From Moraxellaceae bacterium (GTDB taxonomy: Bacteria; Pseudomonadota; Gammaproteobacteria; Pseudomonadales; Moraxellaceae), in the NCBI GenBank assembly GCA_030646295.1, contig JAUSND010000006.1, positions 1 through 32,000 of the forward strand: a stretch of DNA of 32,000 bases, in the 5' to 3' direction. The notes under the pieces are model-generated. The model was not told the origin of the DNA. It searched no databases and worked only from the letters and a program-made list of their open reading frames with translations. The translations under genes were made by a program, and so were the position numbers. Below, in pieces: positions 5-30,223 of this stretch. Each line of letters opens with the position of its first letter. The stretch's first letter is position 1.

Positions 5-228
5 TTAGGGTTTCCGTTGGGCTTACTGGTTTTTAAGTGTTTCAAGCAAGGGAATTGCATCAGCTTGTGGCTTCGGTCACTGCCTTCACGCTTCGATTTA
101 TGTTGTGATTCCCTTTGCCTTAATTAAGGTTGCTCCTGGCCGGTGATACCGGTCTCCGTAGTAACCGGGTGCCTTCGCTAAATGCCAGTGGCACCTTTGG
201 CGGGGCGGTAGCGTGCCAAACGCCACCA
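5..228 (+). ncRNA. ORF-less cassette, candidate structured RNA element (copy A, short subtype)
   Basis: There is no credible ORF between core site 4-10 and attC 229-303. The element is homologous to copy D (3216-3417). Shared stems are GGGAATTGCA 50-59 / TGTGATTCCC 104-113, CGGT 141-144 / ACCG 164-167, GGTGCC 168-173 / GGCACC 190-195, and GGCAC 190-194 / GTGCC 213-217. Strand is assumed from cassette orientation. Confidence 0.5.
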
Positions 229-303
229 CCCTAACAATTCGCTCAAGAGGGACCCGGTGTCAGGCTGCGCCTGCCCCCGGGCCCCTTAGCTCAAACGTTA
301 GAT
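229..303 (+). other. attC recombination site
   Basis: The inverse core CCCTAAC (229-235) is complementary to GTTAGGG at 4-10. The core is GTTAGAT at 297-303. The central part is an imperfect palindrome, gacccggtgtcaggctgcgcctgcccccggg. Confidence 0.85.
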
Positions 304-3146: not shown

Positions 3147-3221
3147 CCCTAACAATTCGCTCAAGAGGGACCCGGTGTCAGGCTCCGCCTGCCTCCGGGC
3201 CCCTTAGCTCAAACGTTAGGG
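3147..3221 (+). other. attC recombination site
   Basis: Inverse core CCCTAAC at 3147-3153 is complementary to GTTAGGG at 2879-2885. Core is GTTAGGG at 3215-3221. Ignoring the last core bases, which belong to the next cassette, the site differs from attC 229-303 at only 2 positions. Confidence 0.85.
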
Positions 3222-3417
3222 CTATCGCTGTCGTACTGGTGGTTGTGTTAATCAAGCAAGGGAATTGCATCGTTTCGTGACTTCGGCAAATGCTGTCACG
3301 CTCCGTTCAAATCTGTGATTCCCCTGCTTCGGTATTTTTTGTTCGGTGATTACGTGCTTCGTAGTTACCGGGTGCCTTCGCTAAATGCCGCTGGCACCTT
3401 TGGCGGGGCGGTAGCGT
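3216..3417 (+). ncRNA. ORF-less cassette, candidate structured RNA element (copy D, short subtype)
   Basis: Stems are GGGAATTGCA 3260-3269 / TGTGATTCCC 3314-3323, CGTGAC 3276-3281 / GTCACG 3295-3300, CGGTGATTAC 3344-3353 / GTAGTTACCG 3361-3370 (two G-T wobbles), GGTGCC 3371-3376 / GGCACC 3393-3398, and GGCAC 3393-3397 / GTGCC 3416-3420. Confidence 0.5.
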
Positions 3418-3489
3418 GCCAAACGCCACTGGGGTTTTACCCCGCTTTCACGGACACATCTGATAAGCCCCTTAACTCCAACGTTAGGC
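3418..3489 (+). other. attC-like site, atypical sequence
   Basis: It ends in a good core, ctccaacGTTAGGC (3483-3489). The 5' half (GCCAAACgccactggggttttaccccgc...) is unlike the family consensus, and the inverse-core-like GCCAAAC at 3418-3424 overlaps the conserved element. Confidence 0.55.
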
Positions 3490-3506: not shown

Positions 3507-3860
3507 GTGAAGTATCTAGTTATTGTTTTGCTATTGGCTGGTGGCTATTGGCTCTACACCGAGAAATACAATAAACAGACGTCGGCCGGCGAGAACCTCG
3601 TAGCCCAGATCCAAGCAGGAAAACCTGTTTCGATTCCGCAGGCAAAAATCAAAGCGGACGAAATAGTTACATTCTTCTGTAATGATTCTGGCCTTCAAGC
3701 CGCAGGGAACTCCAGCACGACCGAATGCTTAGGCAAGTATTCGGAACGTAAAGAGCGCTGCGAGCAAAGAATTTTTCCAGAAGCAGCCACCCCCATTAAG
3801 ACTGAAGAAGAGCTTAAGGCATATTTTAAGCGCTTCATTCATTGCACTATTGAATCTTAA
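3507..3860 (+). CDS. Hypothetical membrane-anchored or secreted protein (cassette ORF)
   Basis: GTG start 8 nt after AAGGAG. The N-terminus is hydrophobic (MKYLVIVLLLAGGYWLY). The ORF fills cassette 3484-3945. Confidence 0.7.
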   Translation: MKYLVIVLLLAGGYWLYTEKYNKQTSAGENLVAQIQAGKPVSIPQAKIKADEIVTFFCNDSGLQAAGNSSTTECLGKYSERKERCEQRIFPEAATPIKTEEELKAYFKRFIHCTIES

Positions 3861-8133: not shown

Positions 8134-8538
8134 ATGATCGATTTCCTGTTTTTCCTTATGCCTGCCATCTGGCTCGGCACCACCCATCACCGGCGATGGG
8201 GAAGTATTCTGGATCCTGCGCACTGGGCAAGTGCATCCGGAATAGCGCTAGTGATGTATGTTTCCTACATGCTGGTTATTTTAGTGGCAGGCTCCGACGC
8301 ACTTAACTCTTACTACTCCTCAAACCATGGAGTCATGTCTTTCCGTGGCAAAATTAATGCCTTCATGCTGCCGAGCACAGGTCTGGCTATTGCCATGTTT
8401 CCCAAGGCGGCATCAGAGCAAATGTTTAATATACTTGCTGTCGCTCGTGCCGGAGCAATATCTGAGCTGGCTACGGTTATAGGTTGGAGCCTAGTTGCTT
8501 ACTGGCTCTTCTTCACTGCCTATTACATCAGCCATTAG
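8134..8538 (+). CDS. Hypothetical integral membrane protein (cassette ORF)
   Basis: It has four hydrophobic segments. I recognise no family and see no clear RBS. Confidence 0.55.
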   Translation: MIDFLFFLMPAIWLGTTHHRRWGSILDPAHWASASGIALVMYVSYMLVILVAGSDALNSYYSSNHGVMSFRGKINAFMLPSTGLAIAMFPKAASEQMFNILAVARAGAISELATVIGWSLVAYWLFFTAYYISH

Positions 8539-8539
8539 G

Positions 8540-8611
8540 CTCAAACTCGTTCAGGTGTAACCCGGAGTCAGGCTTCACCTGCCCCCGCAGCCCTCAATTC
8601 CAATGGTCGCG
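8540..8611 (+). other. attC site with mutated core (GGTCGCG)
   Basis: The sequence CTCAAACtcgttcaggtgtaacccggagtcaggcttcacctgcccccgcagccctcaattccaatGGTCGCG has the family central region, but both cores are degenerate. Confidence 0.55.
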
Positions 8612-8951
8612 CCCAGCACTTAAGAGCGCCGTTCCCTCTTTCCCTTTCTCTTGTTGCTGTCCATTCGCTATCACCGCACTTTTAGAAATCACAGAATAAA
8701 ACACCCGGCACGGTTGATGTGCAAAGCCAGCCCGTTGCCGGTGCACTGGTTAAATCCCGTAAGGAATGCCCCCAATGACTCGCTTACCTTATTGGTAATC
8801 GCCCCATCAGCTATAATCTCTTCATTCGCCATGAGAAAAATGAACTCAAGGCAGAAAGTGAGGCGTGACTGGCACCTCCAGAGACCATGCCTCCCTTGTA
8901 TATTGGCTATATGGGCAGAACCGGTTTACTACAAACCGTTCTGAGCGGTAG

Positions 8952-9029
8952 CTCTGACAACTCGTTTCAGGACTTATCCATGCTTGGGTTTTAACCAGGC
9001 ATGGATAAGCCCTGAACTACGGCGTCATG
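8952..9029 (+). other. Last attC-like site of the array (degenerate core GTCATGA)
   Basis: CTCTGACaactcgtttcagg is followed by a long palindrome, GGACTTATCCATGC...GCATGGATAAGCCC, and then cctgaactacggcGTCATGA. Confidence 0.55.
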
Positions 9030-9045
9030 AAACAAGGAGCGAGCC

Positions 9046-9525
9046 ATGTTCAACTCCACGATTCGGGATCGTCTTGAAGCCCAGGGGTTTTGCGACCTTG
9101 ATGACGCGACCCTGGCAGAAGTCGGGCCATGGTTAAGATGGGCGCCTGTTCTTTGCGCGCTATTCATGACCCTGGGCGTTTTCCTGCAATCGCCGGTGGT
9201 GTTGTGGGCGCTTGCAGCCACGGCTTTTCTGGGCGTTTTTCTGCCGTTTCATCCGTTTGATCTTCTCTACAACCATGGAGTCCGGCACCTCACCGGGACG
9301 CGACCGCTTCCGCATAATGGCCCGCAACGCAAGTTTGCCTGTGGCCTGGCCTCTGCATGGCTGCTTGCTACGGGCGGGGCCTTTTATGCGGGTGCAAGCA
9401 CGCTGGGTTTTGCGCTAGGAATTCCGCTCATTCTTGTGGCCGCCCTGGTGAGCATTACCCACATTTGCATTCCATCCATGATTTACAACTATCTGTTCGG
9501 CAAGGACGGAGCAGGCCGCGCGTAG
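9046..9525 (+). CDS. DUF4395-like membrane protein
   Basis: RBS AAGGAG lies upstream. The 159-aa product has 3-4 TM segments and the motifs FHPFDLLYN and THICIPS. The family call is from memory. GC content resembles the core genome. Confidence 0.7.
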   Translation: MFNSTIRDRLEAQGFCDLDDATLAEVGPWLRWAPVLCALFMTLGVFLQSPVVLWALAATAFLGVFLPFHPFDLLYNHGVRHLTGTRPLPHNGPQRKFACGLASAWLLATGGAFYAGASTLGFALGIPLILVAALVSITHICIPSMIYNYLFGKDGAGRA

Positions 9526-9645
9526 TCATGCGCACAACAAAGCATAGCGCCCCCTGAATCACCAGAAAGACTGCCCTGCATCACGGCGAACACCCGCATA
9601 CCGGGTAAACTGCCGCAATCAGCCACATCAGTCGGTCAGCCATCC

Positions 9646-10857
9646 GTGTACACGCCCCGCCAGCAATACCGTTCCGCCCTGCCACTGGCCATTCTGCTCG
9701 CTGCAGCCGGGGCGGTGCCTGCCGCATTTGCTGGTACCGAATCTGGCACAAAAACAGCCACCGGTACGCCGGCGGAGGCTCAGCCAGATGCATCGTCCGC
9801 AGCAAAGCCGCTCTCGCTGATCTCTGCCGAAGACGGTCATCTGGACGTCAGCGAATTTGTGGACCAGGCCTATGGCTTTATCCCGGTCCTTGTTCCGATT
9901 ACCGAACCGGCGGTGGGTGCCGGTCTGGCCGGGGCACTGGCGTTCATCGACAAGCCGGATCAGAAAGTAGGCAACGTGCAGCGCCCCAACATGTCGGTAC
10001 TCGGTGGTTTTGCCACGGAGAACGGCACGCAGGGTGTGCTGGCGGGCGACATGCGCTACTGGCTCGACGGCCGTCTGCAGACCATGGTCGGGGGGCTCGA
10101 TGCAACGGTGAATCTGGATTATTACGGTGCAGACGAGCAGAGCGCCCTGTACGACAACCCGCTCTCCTATGCACTGGACCTTAGCGGCGTCATGGCACAA
10201 GCCAGTTACCGCATCGGTCGCCACAGCTGGCTGGGGCTGGGCTACGTGATCGCTGACACCGATGCAGGACTGGATAGCCAGACAGCCTTGCCCAGCACAC
10301 GGGATACATCAACCACACTGGGTGGCCTGACGATTTCGGCAACATGGGATACGCGCGACAATCTGTTCACACCCCGCGGCGGCAGCTACCTGACGCTGTC
10401 GAATATCGCGTTTGACGAAGCACTGGGCAGTGACCGCGACTTTAACCGCGTCAGCGTGGTCGGCATGCAATACCTCACCCTGGCACCTGACTGGTACATG
10501 GGCTGGCGTGAAATGCTGGCCAGCGGCTCGGGCGATACCCCGTTCTACGCCAAGCCCTACGTGTACATGCGCGGCGTGCCCGCCATGCGTTATCAGGGCG
10601 ACAACATCGCCCAGATCGAAACCGAACTCACCTGGCAGTTTCATCCGCGCTACAGCGCGCTGGCCTTTGTTGGCACCGGTGCTGCTTCCAGGGAAATCGG
10701 CGAGTTCTCGCGCAGCAGTGATGTTGTTGCCGGTGGTGCCGGCATGCGCTACGAGATTGCGCGCAAATACGGCGTGCACATGGGAATGGATGTGGCGTGG
10801 AGCCGCGATGGTGGTGCTGTCTACATACAGTTCGGCAGCGCCTGGATGCGTCCGTGA
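9646..10857 (+). CDS. Omp85/surface-antigen (D15) family outer-membrane beta-barrel protein
   Basis: It has a signal peptide (LPLAILLAAAGAVPAAFA), alternating beta-strand patterns, WDTRDNLFTPRGG, and a C-terminal aromatic-rich end (YIQFGSAW). Confidence 0.75.
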   Translation: MYTPRQQYRSALPLAILLAAAGAVPAAFAGTESGTKTATGTPAEAQPDASSAAKPLSLISAEDGHLDVSEFVDQAYGFIPVLVPITEPAVGAGLAGALAFIDKPDQKVGNVQRPNMSVLGGFATENGTQGVLAGDMRYWLDGRLQTMVGGLDATVNLDYYGADEQSALYDNPLSYALDLSGVMAQASYRIGRHSWLGLGYVIADTDAGLDSQTALPSTRDTSTTLGGLTISATWDTRDNLFTPRGGSYLTLSNIAFDEALGSDRDFNRVSVVGMQYLTLAPDWYMGWREMLASGSGDTPFYAKPYVYMRGVPAMRYQGDNIAQIETELTWQFHPRYSALAFVGTGAASREIGEFSRSSDVVAGGAGMRYEIARKYGVHMGMDVAWSRDGGAVYIQFGSAWMRP

Positions 10858-20603: not shown

Positions 20604-20671
20604 GTGGGAGCGGCTTTAGCCGCGAACAGGCGTTGCTTAATGAAAATATTCGCGGCTAAAGCCGCTCCCAC
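20604..20671. repeat. REP-type inverted pair (GTGGGAGCGGCTTTAGCCGCGAA and its reverse complement)
   Basis: Perfect 23-bp arms at 20604-20626 and 20649-20671. Each arm contains the internal palindrome GCGGCT..AGCCGC. The same motif recurs at 24896-24967 and 28978-29000. Confidence 0.8.
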
Positions 20672-20699
20672 ACAGAACAGGCACTGCCGTGCGCACATG

Positions 20700-24895: not shown

Positions 24896-24967
24896 GTGGG
24901 AGCGGCTTCAGCCGCGAACAGAGTCCTGGAACAGGCCCTCAACATTCGCGGCTGAAGCCGCTCCCAC
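24896..24967. repeat. REP-type inverted pair (GTGGGAGCGGCTTCAGCCGCGAA and its reverse complement)
   Basis: Arms at 24896-24918 and 24945-24967, in the gcvH-gcvPA intergenic region. Confidence 0.8.
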
Positions 24968-24989
24968 CAAAACGGTACGCTCTAACAGA

Positions 24990-27660: not shown

Positions 27661-27724
27661 CAGGCAACTGCCTTTTGCTGGTGTGAATATTCGCGACTGG
27701 CGCCGCACCGGTAACAACCCTGCG

Positions 27725-28978
27725 CTAGAGTCCCTGACCACCGCTACGCGCACTGCCAGGCAAATCACCCGACAGCCCCATGGCCACACGCGCCAGCTCC
27801 TGCTTGACGGGCAACAGGCGATTGGTGGCACGCATGCCGATATTGCGCGCAACGACAAGCAGCGGGTGCTGGCTGCCAAACAGTTTCTGGAAGCCGGTCA
27901 TGCTGTTAAGGATGAGCGTGTTGTGGGCGCGACGGCGGCGTGCGTAACGCGACAATGTCACTTCGTCACTCCAGGCAATCTTCCTGTCGAGTGCCCGGCA
28001 TATTTCTTCCGCCAGCACACCGGCATCAAGCAGACCGATATTGACGCCCTGCCCCGCCAGCGGATGGATCGCATGGGCGGCATCACCGATCAGCGCAATG
28101 CCGTCACGGACATAATCGGTGGCATGCGCCGCACGCAGCGGAAAGCTGTAGCGCGGATCAACCGACTCGATGTTGCCCAGCGTGTTCTCCAGCGCAAAAC
28201 CGATTTCCCGCATGAAGGCCTGGTCATCCAGCGCCATCAGTCGCTGCGCTTCCGGTTCGTCCTGCGACCAGACGATGGAGCAGAAATGATCGTCACCGCT
28301 TGCCGTGAGCAGCGGCAGGAAGGCCAGCGGCCCGGTCGGACTGAAGCGCTGCCAGGCCGTGAACTGGTGCGGCTTTTGTGTACGCACCGTGGTGACAATG
28401 GCGCGCTGGTGATAATCCGTGGCGCGCACATCCAGGCCCACCATGCCGCGCACGGCCGACTGCGCACCATCGGCGCCCACCACCAGTGTGGCCTGCAGCG
28501 TTTCGCCGTCGTCCAGCGTGAGCTGCCAGCCCTGCGGCAACCGCTCCAGATGGGTAAGCCGGGCCGGGCAGCGCAAGGTGACGTTATCCGCCTTTACGGC
28601 AACCTCGGTGAGTGCCGCCTGCAGCAGCCGGTTTTCCACCAGCACGCCCAGATGGCTTTCGCCGATTTCACGCGACGAAAACTCGACACGGCCACTGCCA
28701 TCGGCATCCCACACCGTCATGCCGGTATAGGCACAGCAACGGCAGGCTTCGACCGCCGCCCAGGCGCCGACATGCCGCAACAGGTTTTCTGACGCGCGCG
28801 TGAGTGCAGAGACACGCGGCTCGAAAGGCGCATCGGGCAATGGCGCCTCCACGGCGGCACGCTCCAGCATGAGAATGGACAGGCCGCTTTTCTGCAGCAG
28901 GGCCGCAAGCAACGAGCCAACCATGCCGGCACCAACGATGACAATGTCGTACTTACTTGATGGCATGACTGCACTCAT
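27725..28978 (-). CDS. UbiH/UbiF/VisC/COQ6-family ubiquinone-biosynthesis hydroxylase (UbiI/VisC-like by synteny)
   Basis: It has YDIVIVGAGMVG (FAD), GADGA.S.VR and IGDAAH.IHPLAGQG.N.G..D. It lies downstream of ubiH, as visC/ubiI does in E. coli. Confidence 0.85.
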   Translation of the reverse strand: MSAVMPSSKYDIVIVGAGMVGSLLAALLQKSGLSILMLERAAVEAPLPDAPFEPRVSALTRASENLLRHVGAWAAVEACRCCAYTGMTVWDADGSGRVEFSSREIGESHLGVLVENRLLQAALTEVAVKADNVTLRCPARLTHLERLPQGWQLTLDDGETLQATLVVGADGAQSAVRGMVGLDVRATDYHQRAIVTTVRTQKPHQFTAWQRFSPTGPLAFLPLLTASGDDHFCSIVWSQDEPEAQRLMALDDQAFMREIGFALENTLGNIESVDPRYSFPLRAAHATDYVRDGIALIGDAAHAIHPLAGQGVNIGLLDAGVLAEEICRALDRKIAWSDEVTLSRYARRRRAHNTLILNSMTGFQKLFGSQHPLLVVARNIGMRATNRLLPVKQELARVAMGLSGDLPGSARSGGQGL

Positions 28979-29000
28979 TCGCGACCAAAGCCGCTCCCAC
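28978..29000. repeat. Single degenerate REP arm
   Basis: TTCGCGACCAAAGCCGCTCCCAC is related to the REP arm TTCGCGGCTAAAGCCGCTCCCAC. It sits between the ubiH and ubiI-like genes. Confidence 0.55.
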
Positions 29001-29014
29001 GGAAAAAATACGCA

Positions 29015-30223
29015 TCAGTGACTGAGGCCCATGGCATACCGGGCCAGCGCCTGTTTGGCGGCAGGCAGCAAATCAAACGTCACCATGCCGACATTGCGCA
29101 GCAAGGTCAGGCCCGGGGTGTTATTGGAAAATCCGCGCACCAGCCGGTCGGAAAAGCTGGTGACATTATGCTGGTCATCAATACGGGCGTTTTCGTAATC
29201 ACGCAGCAGGGAAAATTCGCCGATGTCGCCGCCTTCACGATGCCGCTGCGCAAGGCGTTCCGTCAGCGCCAGGCAATCGCGCAGACAAAGATTAAAGCCC
29301 TGCCCCGCCACTGGATGCAGCGTGTGGGCGGCATTGCCCAGAATAACGGCACGCGGCTGAGTCTGGGTTTGCGCAACCGTCAGGGCCAGCGGATACGCAA
29401 ATCGTTTTGCCGTTTTCACAAAACGGCCGGCGCGCTTGCCGAAGGCGGCCTGCAACTGCGCCAGAAATTCGTCATCGCTGCAATCAATCAGCGGCTGCTC
29501 GGTACCGGCCGGCAAGGTCCACACCACGGCACGACGGTTTTCCGGCAGCGGCAAGACCGCCATGGGGCCGCTTTCGGTAAACCGCTCATAGGCAATGTGG
29601 TCATGCGGCAGGTGCGTTGCCACTGTTGTCACCAGCGCGACCTGGTCATAGGCCGTCGTCGTGGCGTTCACACCCAGCAGTTCGCGACAAGGAGAATTGG
29701 CGCCATCCGCTGCCACCAGCAATGGTGCGCTCAGCGTAAAGGACTCATCGCCCTTTTTCAGTTCGGCCGAGACGTGCGACTCCTGCACACGAATGCCGGT
29801 GAGCGTCACACCATCGCGCACGGTGACATTGCTGCACTGCCGGAGCGCGCGCAGCAGCACCAGCCCCATCCAGGCGTTTTCAATCACCTGACCGAAGCTC
29901 TCGACATTTTCTTCATCAGCCACCAGACGTGACATGCCGAAGTGGCCGCGCTCGGACACATGGATCTCGTGAATGGAGGTGGCATGCAGCTGCATGTCGT
30001 CCCACAGCCCAAGCTCGCGATAGGTGGACACGGTACGGCGCGACAATGCCGTGTTGCGCGCATCGAAACTGGGGCGGTACGGCAGCGGCGCATCCGGCTC
30101 CAGCGGCGGAAAGGAAATGCTTTCCACCAGCGTGATGGCAAGGCCCGGCTCACGGGCCAGCAGCAGCGCAAGCGTCACGCCCACCATGCCACCGCCGATA
30201 ATCAGCACATCTGTGTCTTTCAC
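29015..30223 (-). CDS. ubiH: 2-octaprenyl-6-methoxyphenol hydroxylase-like FAD monooxygenase
   Basis: It has DVLIIGGGMVG, ADGANS and LGNAAHTLHPVAGQGFNL.LRD. Its position between pepP and the visC-like gene matches E. coli and Pseudomonas order. Confidence 0.85.
   Translation of the reverse strand: MKDTDVLIIGGGMVGVTLALLLAREPGLAITLVESISFPPLEPDAPLPYRPSFDARNTALSRRTVSTYRELGLWDDMQLHATSIHEIHVSERGHFGMSRLVADEENVESFGQVIENAWMGLVLLRALRQCSNVTVRDGVTLTGIRVQESHVSAELKKGDESFTLSAPLLVAADGANSPCRELLGVNATTTAYDQVALVTTVATHLPHDHIAYERFTESGPMAVLPLPENRRAVVWTLPAGTEQPLIDCSDDEFLAQLQAAFGKRAGRFVKTAKRFAYPLALTVAQTQTQPRAVILGNAAHTLHPVAGQGFNLCLRDCLALTERLAQRHREGGDIGEFSLLRDYENARIDDQHNVTSFSDRLVRGFSNNTPGLTLLRNVGMVTFDLLPAAKQALARYAMGLSH

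Follow-up and report, generated by a model that had tools for sequence, protein, structure and literature searches.

What can an integron cassette carry when it has no gene? The question is raised by a 32,000-nucleotide stretch of DNA (the window; contig JAUSND010000006.1) that comes from the metagenome-assembled genome of an uncultured Moraxellaceae bacterium. A cassette array on the plus strand fills the first 8.6 kb of the window, and its units are set off by AACG/TTAG crossover sites and by attC sites of about 70 nucleotides (nt), all of one family. Four of these units, here called A, B, C and D, belong to a single family of cassettes without an open reading frame (ORF), as had been proposed in a first-pass annotation made from the letters of the window. 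Cassettes A and D contain an exact copy of the ops element, and B and C contain a sigma70-like promoter. We propose, with a probability of roughly one half, that the family consists of mobile gene-less expression modules of either an antitermination type (A and D) or a promoter type (B and C). The payload of A and D would then be a regulatory signal; they do not encode a protein.

The ops element of cassettes A and D

Copies of the element were located by nhmmer profiles in the window and in 20 related loci, which are metagenomic contigs carrying the element (numbered L001, L002, L015 and so on). Cassettes A and D are copies of a short subtype, and both contain GGCGGTAGCGTG on the plus strand, at 204-215 in A and at 3407-3418 in D. 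This is a 12/12 match to ops of Escherichia coli, on the non-template strand for sense transcription. The ops element is a 12-nt non-template-strand signal found in all RfaH-controlled operons; the action of RfaH is abolished by G4C, G5A, A7T and G8C, and the pause is made by T11/G12 (Zuber et al., 2018). Both A and D comply with the consensus GGCGGTAGnnTG, with G4, G5, T6, A7, G8 and T11/G12 all in place. The window contains two matches to GGCGGTAGNNTG, against 0.05 expected, and the related loci hold 13 more ops matches, every one within the element and on the sense strand. In D, the ops element lies 89 nt upstream of the GTG start of the ORF at 3507-3860, which also has a good Shine-Dalgarno sequence.

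In A, the ops element closes a near-invariant block (190-215, plus strand; GGCACCTTTGGCGGGGCGGTAGCGTG), and the ops-type (alpha) 3' module is nowhere better conserved than here. Among 14 distinct modules of this type, the block 190-214 (alignment columns 35-65) has undergone two changes in total. The ops element also forms the 5' strand of a terminal hairpin (202-214/220-232 in A, plus strand), the 3' strand of which leads into the R'' box of attC. The ops strand of this hairpin shows 1 change in 13 columns in the same 14 modules, against 34 in its pairing partner. Were pairing the sole constraint, the two strands should not differ so much, and the comparison therefore favours a sequence-specific signal, with the alpha block conserved for its sequence and not for pairing alone. 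What had been annotated simply as a shared 3' module of a multi-helix RNA appears to hold a signal that would be read on the non-template strand of the DNA, rather than an RNA helix.

In a permissive scan of A against Rfam, the one informative weak match was to JUMPstart (RF01707), with agreement at 13/13 positions of the 3' end of the model, and the JUMPstart 3' end matched by A is the ops element. Both ops and JUMPstart are classical elements. The E. coli JUMPstart 39-mer is present in 5,426 of 5,426 complete E. coli genomes; one example stands where the O-antigen cluster begins, between galF and rfbB, and its final 14 nt (GGGGCGGTAGCGTG) agree in every base with positions 202-215 of the window. 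The cassettes thus resemble the JUMPstart of E. coli and its relatives in having an identical 12-nt ops element and, with it, 14 nt that equal the JUMPstart 3' end, in its placement on the predicted non-template strand at the 3' end of a longer conserved block, and in its position ahead of a long string of horizontally acquired genes. They differ in that the element sits inside a mobile, attC-bounded, gene-less cassette present in many copies. In addition, the 5' two-thirds of JUMPstart are not conserved here and the score falls below the Rfam threshold, the host is Moraxellaceae-like and not enteric, A and D have no promoter immediately upstream, and RfaH dependence is a candidate property.

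The invariant stretch before ops (TGGCACCTTTGGCGG; 189-203 and 3392-3406) opens with a perfect sigma54 -24 box. A sigma54 promoter was rejected: TGGCAC at 189-194 fits the -24 box, but the -12 GC lies 2 nt too close. A sigmaE-like promoter, which would need a 19-nt spacer and a variable loop, was also rejected.

Cassette A occupies positions 5-297 (plus strand; crossover points at 4/5 and 297/298) and is a full-length nhmmer match with its own intact attC (229-297, plus strand; repeat family D1), for which the bottom-strand DNA fold has z = -4.9. Cassette D occupies positions 3216-3483 (plus strand; crossover points at 3215/3216 and 3483/3484). Both had been described as non-coding and alignable along their length, which was confirmed by stops in all six frames and by an identity of 73% from end to end; the identical blocks that had been quoted for the pair were all found in place. 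Identity is 73% in the 5' stretch (A 24-113 and D 3234-3323) and 91% in the last 86 nt ahead of attC (A 141-226 and D 3344-3429). Alignment of the attC of D with other attC sites showed that the L'-R' half alone is kept (3435-3483, plus strand), and the bottom-strand fold has z = -1.0, against -4.3 to -5.4 at neighbouring attC sites. Because the R''-L'' half is gone and the fold is this weak, cassette D is probably a remnant, immobilised and fused to the next cassette (ORF 3507-3860). A GGGGTTTTACCCC hairpin takes the place expected for R''-L'' in D (window 3426-3489).

A mobile gene-less family with two 3' modules

The similarity of A and D might have been a recent duplication without homologues elsewhere, but their relatives are present in at least 20 metagenomic contigs. 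In total, 90 non-overlapping copies were found in the window and the 20 related loci. All are bounded by attC, as a check suggested in the first-pass annotation had asked, and all are co-oriented with the cassette ORFs, on the sense strand. An exact-pattern scan matched seven metagenomic contigs, and the same kind of scan gave no match in 185,579 species genomes (one per species); searches of plasmids and of viral contigs for homologues also gave no match. Further contigs were reached by using spurious ORFs over the element as bait in a protein collection. Locus L010, the sole return of a search with a back-translated pseudo-protein, was a false positive. A and D therefore belong, as two diverged copies, to a family of gene-less integron cassettes that is lineage-restricted and highly repeated.

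The copy number is highest at locus L015, where 27 copies in one 20-kb array make up 37% of the bases, their attC sites not counted, and where five different copies stand in a row (8337-10125). Distinct long copies share 54-100% pairwise identity, with a median of 70%, and are old paralogues rather than fresh duplicates; within one array the median is about 72%. The cassette also moves as a unit, since the same cassette occurs between different neighbours. For instance, a cassette of L002 is 99% identical to A yet has other flanking cassettes, and L001, L003 and L021 share a cassette while their downstream or upstream neighbours differ. The first-pass annotation had placed each copy directly upstream of a protein-coding cassette and had linked A and D to the signal-peptide or transmembrane ORFs that follow them. 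Neither point stood, given that B adjoins C, that runs of five copies occur elsewhere, and that near-identical copies in L001, L002, L003 and L021 have different neighbours, which leaves no specific tie to downstream signal-peptide genes.

The arrays L015 (1-20129), L016, L017 and L018 come from the JGI metagenomes 3300056626, 3300056850 and 3300056759. One third or more of their DNA is the element, with up to five or six consecutive copies, and the protein cassettes between the copies include methyltransferases, Pyr_excise, HEPN_RiboL-PSP and DUF4357. A short-subtype copy at L008 5990-6262 (minus strand of the locus; also in L009) has a 21-nt deletion between two GGCTTCG repeats, by which the inner hairpin is lost, and has no attC upstream. 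Cassette-like genes come next on the same strand and encode a Shedu (SduA_C) protein and a large N6/N4 methyltransferase.

A protein-coding reading of the family was ruled out by a six-frame analysis of 41 copies, which found stops or frameshifts in all six frames across copies. The short copies are interrupted in every frame. Among 34 distinct long copies, 29 are closed in every frame, and a frame of about 100 amino acids (97-102) is open in just four or five. The long elements measure 306-311 nt, including lengths that are not multiples of three. Eight 'proteins' of 42-153 amino acids (P0001-P0007 and P0026), which appear in the gene calls of ENA, JGI, NCBI and Logan, have been translated from this element and are spurious annotations; some of their frames run on from the preceding attC. 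The family therefore accounts for several 'hypothetical proteins' in the databases as spurious gene calls. The remote idea of a decayed protein-coding cassette can draw on these gene calls and on the few open 97-102-residue frames, but the closed frames and the element lengths speak against it. Its companion, a single-stranded DNA structure serving cassette recombination, is opposed by wobble pairs that favour the top strand, while attC recombination uses the bottom strand; we find the two together scarcely credible.

Cassettes B (2137-2508) and C (2509-2879), both on the plus strand, belong to a long subtype. The first-pass annotation had noted that they share the start of the element and the 3' module with A and D, and this was upheld: the shared parts are roughly the first 20 nt and the 3' module. 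The module of B and C is of a promoter type (beta), and AGCGGTTTCGTG stands at the ops position in both, with T at ops positions 7 and 8. The ops-like site of B is probably non-functional, because changes at positions 7 and 8 (A7T and G8C) abolished the action of RfaH. In its place, B has a sigma70-like promoter at 2366-2394 (TGCACA-17-TATAGT) and C has a promoter-like site at 2737-2765, both on the plus strand. B, C and most long copies have the beta module; the alpha module is that of all short copies, A and D among them, and of some long ones.

The beta promoter stands at a fixed place, as GTGACA-16-TATAGT (10/12 matches) or as the GTGGCA and TGCACA variants (9/12). Locus L015 contains 31 promoter-like sites where 13.3 ± 3.6 would be expected, and roughly 25 of the 31 are at the fixed beta position. 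The beta promoter points into the downstream cassette, and a conserved hairpin, TGCCTTCG/CGGGGGCA, has the -10 box of this promoter in its loop. A search of both strands of A and D found no sigma70-like promoter, and a search of the two cassettes found no intrinsic terminator. The alpha modules read TAAATG at the position homologous to TATAGT, without the final T, and GTAGTA at the -35 position. Among 43 distinct 3' modules, 14 have only the ops core, 27 have only the TATAGT -10 box (most with a GTGACA-like -35), one or two have both and one has neither; of the modules with both signals, one has the full 8-nt ops core and one a 7-nt core. The ops and promoter modules are thus almost mutually exclusive, which also favours a sequence-specific signal. 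In the hybrids, at L016 715-790 and L015 1488-1565, TATAGT is followed about 25 nt downstream by the ops core (GGCGGTAGCTTC and GCGGTAGTCGTT, respectively), which matches the classical leader layout of a promoter and then ops.

Two further kinds of element were observed in the window. An insertion sequence (IS) of the IS110 family (Pfam DEDD_Tnp_IS110 and Transposase_20) occupies 880-2070, with its transposase at 907-1875/1887 on the minus strand. It sits in the attC after the cassette at 312-872, in the manner of the attC-targeting IS1111-attC group, and the identical 322-amino-acid transposase is found on many short Logan contigs; the non-coding IS end (1888-2060) could hold a bridge-type RNA. 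Five 38-nt palindromes resembling repetitive extragenic palindromes (CATTCGCGGCTGAAGCCGCTCCCAC...) lie at 20647-20684, 24943-24980, 27688-27725, 28976-29013 and 29214-29251, in the chromosomal part of the window past the cassette array.

Base pairing within the element

The first-pass annotation had proposed a set of RNA helices for A and D. Its 10-bp helix, here called P1, was found as described (core GGGAATTGCA/TGTGATTCCC at A 50-59/104-113 and D 3260-3269/3314-3323), and it is longer by 4-5 bp, reaching 14-15 bp at A 46-59/104-118 and D 3256-3269/3314-3327. The 5' domain of A (46-118, plus strand) consists of P1 (14 bp, one bulge) around a hairpin at 66-70/86-90 with a 3-bp tip at 75-77/82-84, and that of D (3256-3327, plus strand) consists of P1 around an inner hairpin at 3276-3281/3295-3300. 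The inner hairpin is CGTGAC/GTCACG in D and TGTGG/TCACG in A, and so varies in sequence but pairs in both, as had been predicted. Per-sequence folds gave P1 a duplex energy of -16 to -21 kcal/mol in all short copies. The second proposed helix was right for D, where 3344-3353/3361-3370 gains an eleventh pair at 3354/3360; this hairpin (3344-3370, plus strand; CGGTGATTACG/CGTAGTTACCG) is also present in L005 and L007. Cassette A does not have a weaker copy of it, as had been supposed, but a two-tier stem (128-166, plus strand) with GGTTGCT 128-134/AGTAACC 160-166 around GGCCGGT 138-144/ACCGGTC 148-154. The same stem appears in the minimum-free-energy folds of A, L002, L001 and L008, and L001 has a G-to-A change at a G·U position of its outer stem.

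Comparison with more sequences gave mixed results for the short subtype. Over the 5' domain of seven short copies, the paired cells amount to 94%, where slid controls reach 34-58%, and the inner hairpin shows two covarying pairs (U-A/U·G/C-G and A-U/G·U/G-C). The covariation is not significant (171/500 shuffles with seven sequences), and P1 is nearly invariant among the short copies and gives little information either way. Thus the pairing proposed earlier is retained across the added copies, and the RNA-structure claim for the short subtype is plausible but unproven. On the sense strand, D folds better than its shuffles (z = -2.8) and A weakly so (z = -1.1).

In the 43 distinct 3' modules of the family, 83% of the cells of two 3' hairpins are paired, against 32-46% when slid, with 27 double-sided changes against 12.7 in shuffles (0/500) and a covariation score that 1/500 shuffles reached. 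One pair of the central helix of the long copies is CG in 11, GC in 8 and AU in 6. Furthermore, G·U pairs exceed A·C pairs by 129 to 28, which places any folding on the sense strand. Selection is therefore likely to act on sense-strand base pairing in the family. Pairing differs between the A-type and D-type middles, as it does between the alpha and beta modules, and no single consensus fold was derived; in the long subtype, the middle region and both 3' modules admit alternative pairings. The contrast between cognate and non-cognate P1 duplexes in long copies is weak (-10.8 vs -8.9 kcal/mol). Scans for mutual information and stacks in a MAFFT alignment of the long copies were swamped by subfamily signal and by chance GC-rich stacks.

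A comparison with Rfam models, which had been recommended for these helices, was run with Rfam 15 on the window and 62 kb of related arrays, and no family reached its gathering score; apart from the weak JUMPstart match, nothing of relevance came up at E <= 10. The RAGATH-35, COG2827, Telomerase and miRNA matches were at chance level, and ARAGORN returned no tRNA- or tmRNA-like match. The elements are A-poor (17% A), and C is not in excess over G.

Proposed mechanism, alternatives and significance

In the mechanism that we propose, RNA polymerase would enter the array at the promoter Pc, or at a promoter-type cassette farther upstream (B or C, for example), and read on until it reaches ops. 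The polymerase would pause there at U11 and expose a small hairpin of the non-template strand, which would load RfaH or an RfaH-like NusG paralogue. The polymerase thus modified would resist pausing and Rho-dependent termination, and expression of the acquired cassettes downstream would rise. These foreign cassettes may often be poorly translated, and Rho-dependent polarity over them would be suppressed. The 14-15-bp helix and the hairpins may serve as a structured untranslated leader that is closed to Rho until the factor loads. Beta copies would restart transcription, a second and interchangeable way of keeping distal cassettes expressed. From the sequence we infer RfaH loading, antitermination and the role of the upstream helices alike. 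Along the window, A (ops) is followed by an ORF, the IS, B and C (each with a promoter), a further ORF, D (ops) and another ORF, an order that fits this mechanism. RfaH targets are long operon-like strings of xenogenes, and the array context fits this target class. The cis-regulatory role on the array transcript that was suggested earlier is thus plausible, although by a different mechanism and with no tie to particular downstream genes.

Several observations weigh against this proposal. Under the JUMPstart covariance model, for which the gathering score is 35 bits, A scores 15.7 bits, with E = 0.8 in a 300-nt search, and the ops end alone aligns. Position 12 of ops (G215 in A) is T or A in 5 of the 14 alpha modules, all of them long copies, and the pause should be weaker there. 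Neither the 14 invariant nt immediately upstream of ops (GGCACCTTTGGCGG, 190-203) nor the approximately 190 nt of conserved, helix-rich sequence farther upstream is explained by ops. No gene for RfaH or a NusG paralogue was found in the 149 kb examined by tblastn with E. coli RfaH and NusG as queries. RfaH is concentrated around the Enterobacteriaceae, though widely transferred horizontally. Known ops sites are single and stand in a leader just past a promoter, not in repeated mobile units.

The conserved pairing allows another account, in which the functional product is a structured non-coding RNA. Such an RNA could work in cis or in trans, whether as an element for processing or stability, by binding a protein or a ligand, or as the precursor of a small RNA (sRNA), and ops would be a by-product of the terminal hairpin. 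Each copy has several UUCG-type loops, and the account is also served by the long P1 of all short copies, the two covarying pairs of the inner hairpin, the pairing and double-sided changes of the 3' hairpins, the CG, GC and AU exchange in the long central helix and the excess of G·U over A·C. Yet A and D have no terminator or promoter of their own, covariation within the short subtype falls short of significance, folds differ between the two kinds of 3' module and between the A-type and D-type middles, and no Rfam family matches. The one-sided conservation of the ops strand is not predicted by a pure hairpin constraint, and a chance 12/12 ops match has a probability of about 1e-5 per element, so that an RNA product seems rather unlikely. 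One known cassette-borne sRNA is sRNA-Xcc1 of Xanthomonas (RF02221), which acts in trans. The resemblance is that of a non-coding product on an integron cassette; the element does not match the covariance model of sRNA-Xcc1, even with the threshold at E <= 10, and A and D lack the promoter and terminator that define an sRNA gene.

The extreme copy number (27 in 20 kb) and a spread limited to one attC lineage would also suit a selfish or neutral cassette family, multiplied by integrase-mediated duplication and gene conversion without benefit to the host, as was considered for the paralogous non-coding cassettes of Vibrio (Boucher et al., 2006). We judge this unlikely, in that old, diverged copies within one array keep the invariant block, compensatory pairs and one of two expression signals. 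If the host had no RfaH, as the lack of a match in 149 kb might suggest, ops could be a strong pause alone that promotes Rho termination, and the cassette would be a transcriptional insulator or down-regulator. Pausing does not require positions G4-G8, which differ among consensus pauses, but they are invariant here, which fits recognition by a factor better and makes the pause-only account distinctly unlikely. A and D might instead be promoter cassettes, given that sense promoters occur in most gene-less Vibrio superintegron cassettes (Blanco et al., 2024) and that their long beta relatives match sigma70 at 9-10/12 positions in a fixed place. This is very improbable, as neither strand of A or D has a promoter-like site and their -10 and -35 positions depart from the beta promoter as described above.

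Antitermination by A and D, with promoters in B and C, can be set beside cassettes already described in other integrons. Sense promoters were shown in gene-less cassettes of Vibrio (Blanco et al., 2024), and gene-less promoter cassettes are found in Vibrio superintegrons and in oral Treponema integrons (Tansirichaiya et al., 2019; Blanco et al., 2024). These are likewise ORF-less, have their own attC and are thought to act on the expression of neighbouring cassettes, and the beta members (B, C and about 57 others) share with them a sense sigma70-like promoter. In contrast, A and D have no promoter consensus, and control of elongation, not of initiation, is proposed for them; the comparison is one of features. 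The ORF-less cassettes of Vibrio are highly paralogous, with up to 45 copies that make up 49% of an array (Boucher et al., 2006). They resemble the present family in being lineage-restricted and conserved over their whole length, in having dozens of paralogues per array and filling up to half of it, and in raising the same question of a selfish or a regulatory nature. They belong to another attC lineage and another host, and the present family differs from them in that a candidate signal (ops or a promoter) and base-pair covariation can be named.

A literature search found no paper linking RfaH or ops with integrons. A family of non-coding cassettes with an antitermination signal at its conserved core, and with promoter-bearing sisters, would be new, and we hold it to be about as probable as not that this is what the family represents. 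More tentatively, some chromosomal integrons may possess a dedicated mobile 'expression toolkit', in which a cassette supplies either a promoter or a loading site for RfaH or a NusG paralogue with a structured leader of about 190 nt; this broader idea is possible but doubtful.

The family bears on two questions of integron biology, namely how cassettes far from Pc are expressed and why arrays hold many conserved gene-less cassettes. Promoter cassettes are one answer to the expression of distal cassettes, and an ops cassette would add control of elongation, giving protection from Rho and possibly recruitment of ribosomes by an RfaH-like factor. If the broader toolkit idea is true, processive antitermination governs cassettes far from Pc, the ops cassette is the first known case of an antitermination signal that moves in the form of an integron cassette, and the upstream multi-helix RNA is a new accessory element of an antitermination device. 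An ops cassette would also tie xenogene silencing and anti-silencing (NusG and Rho versus RfaH) to integrons, and, if a mobile integron were to capture one, resistance cassettes that are silent could be turned on.

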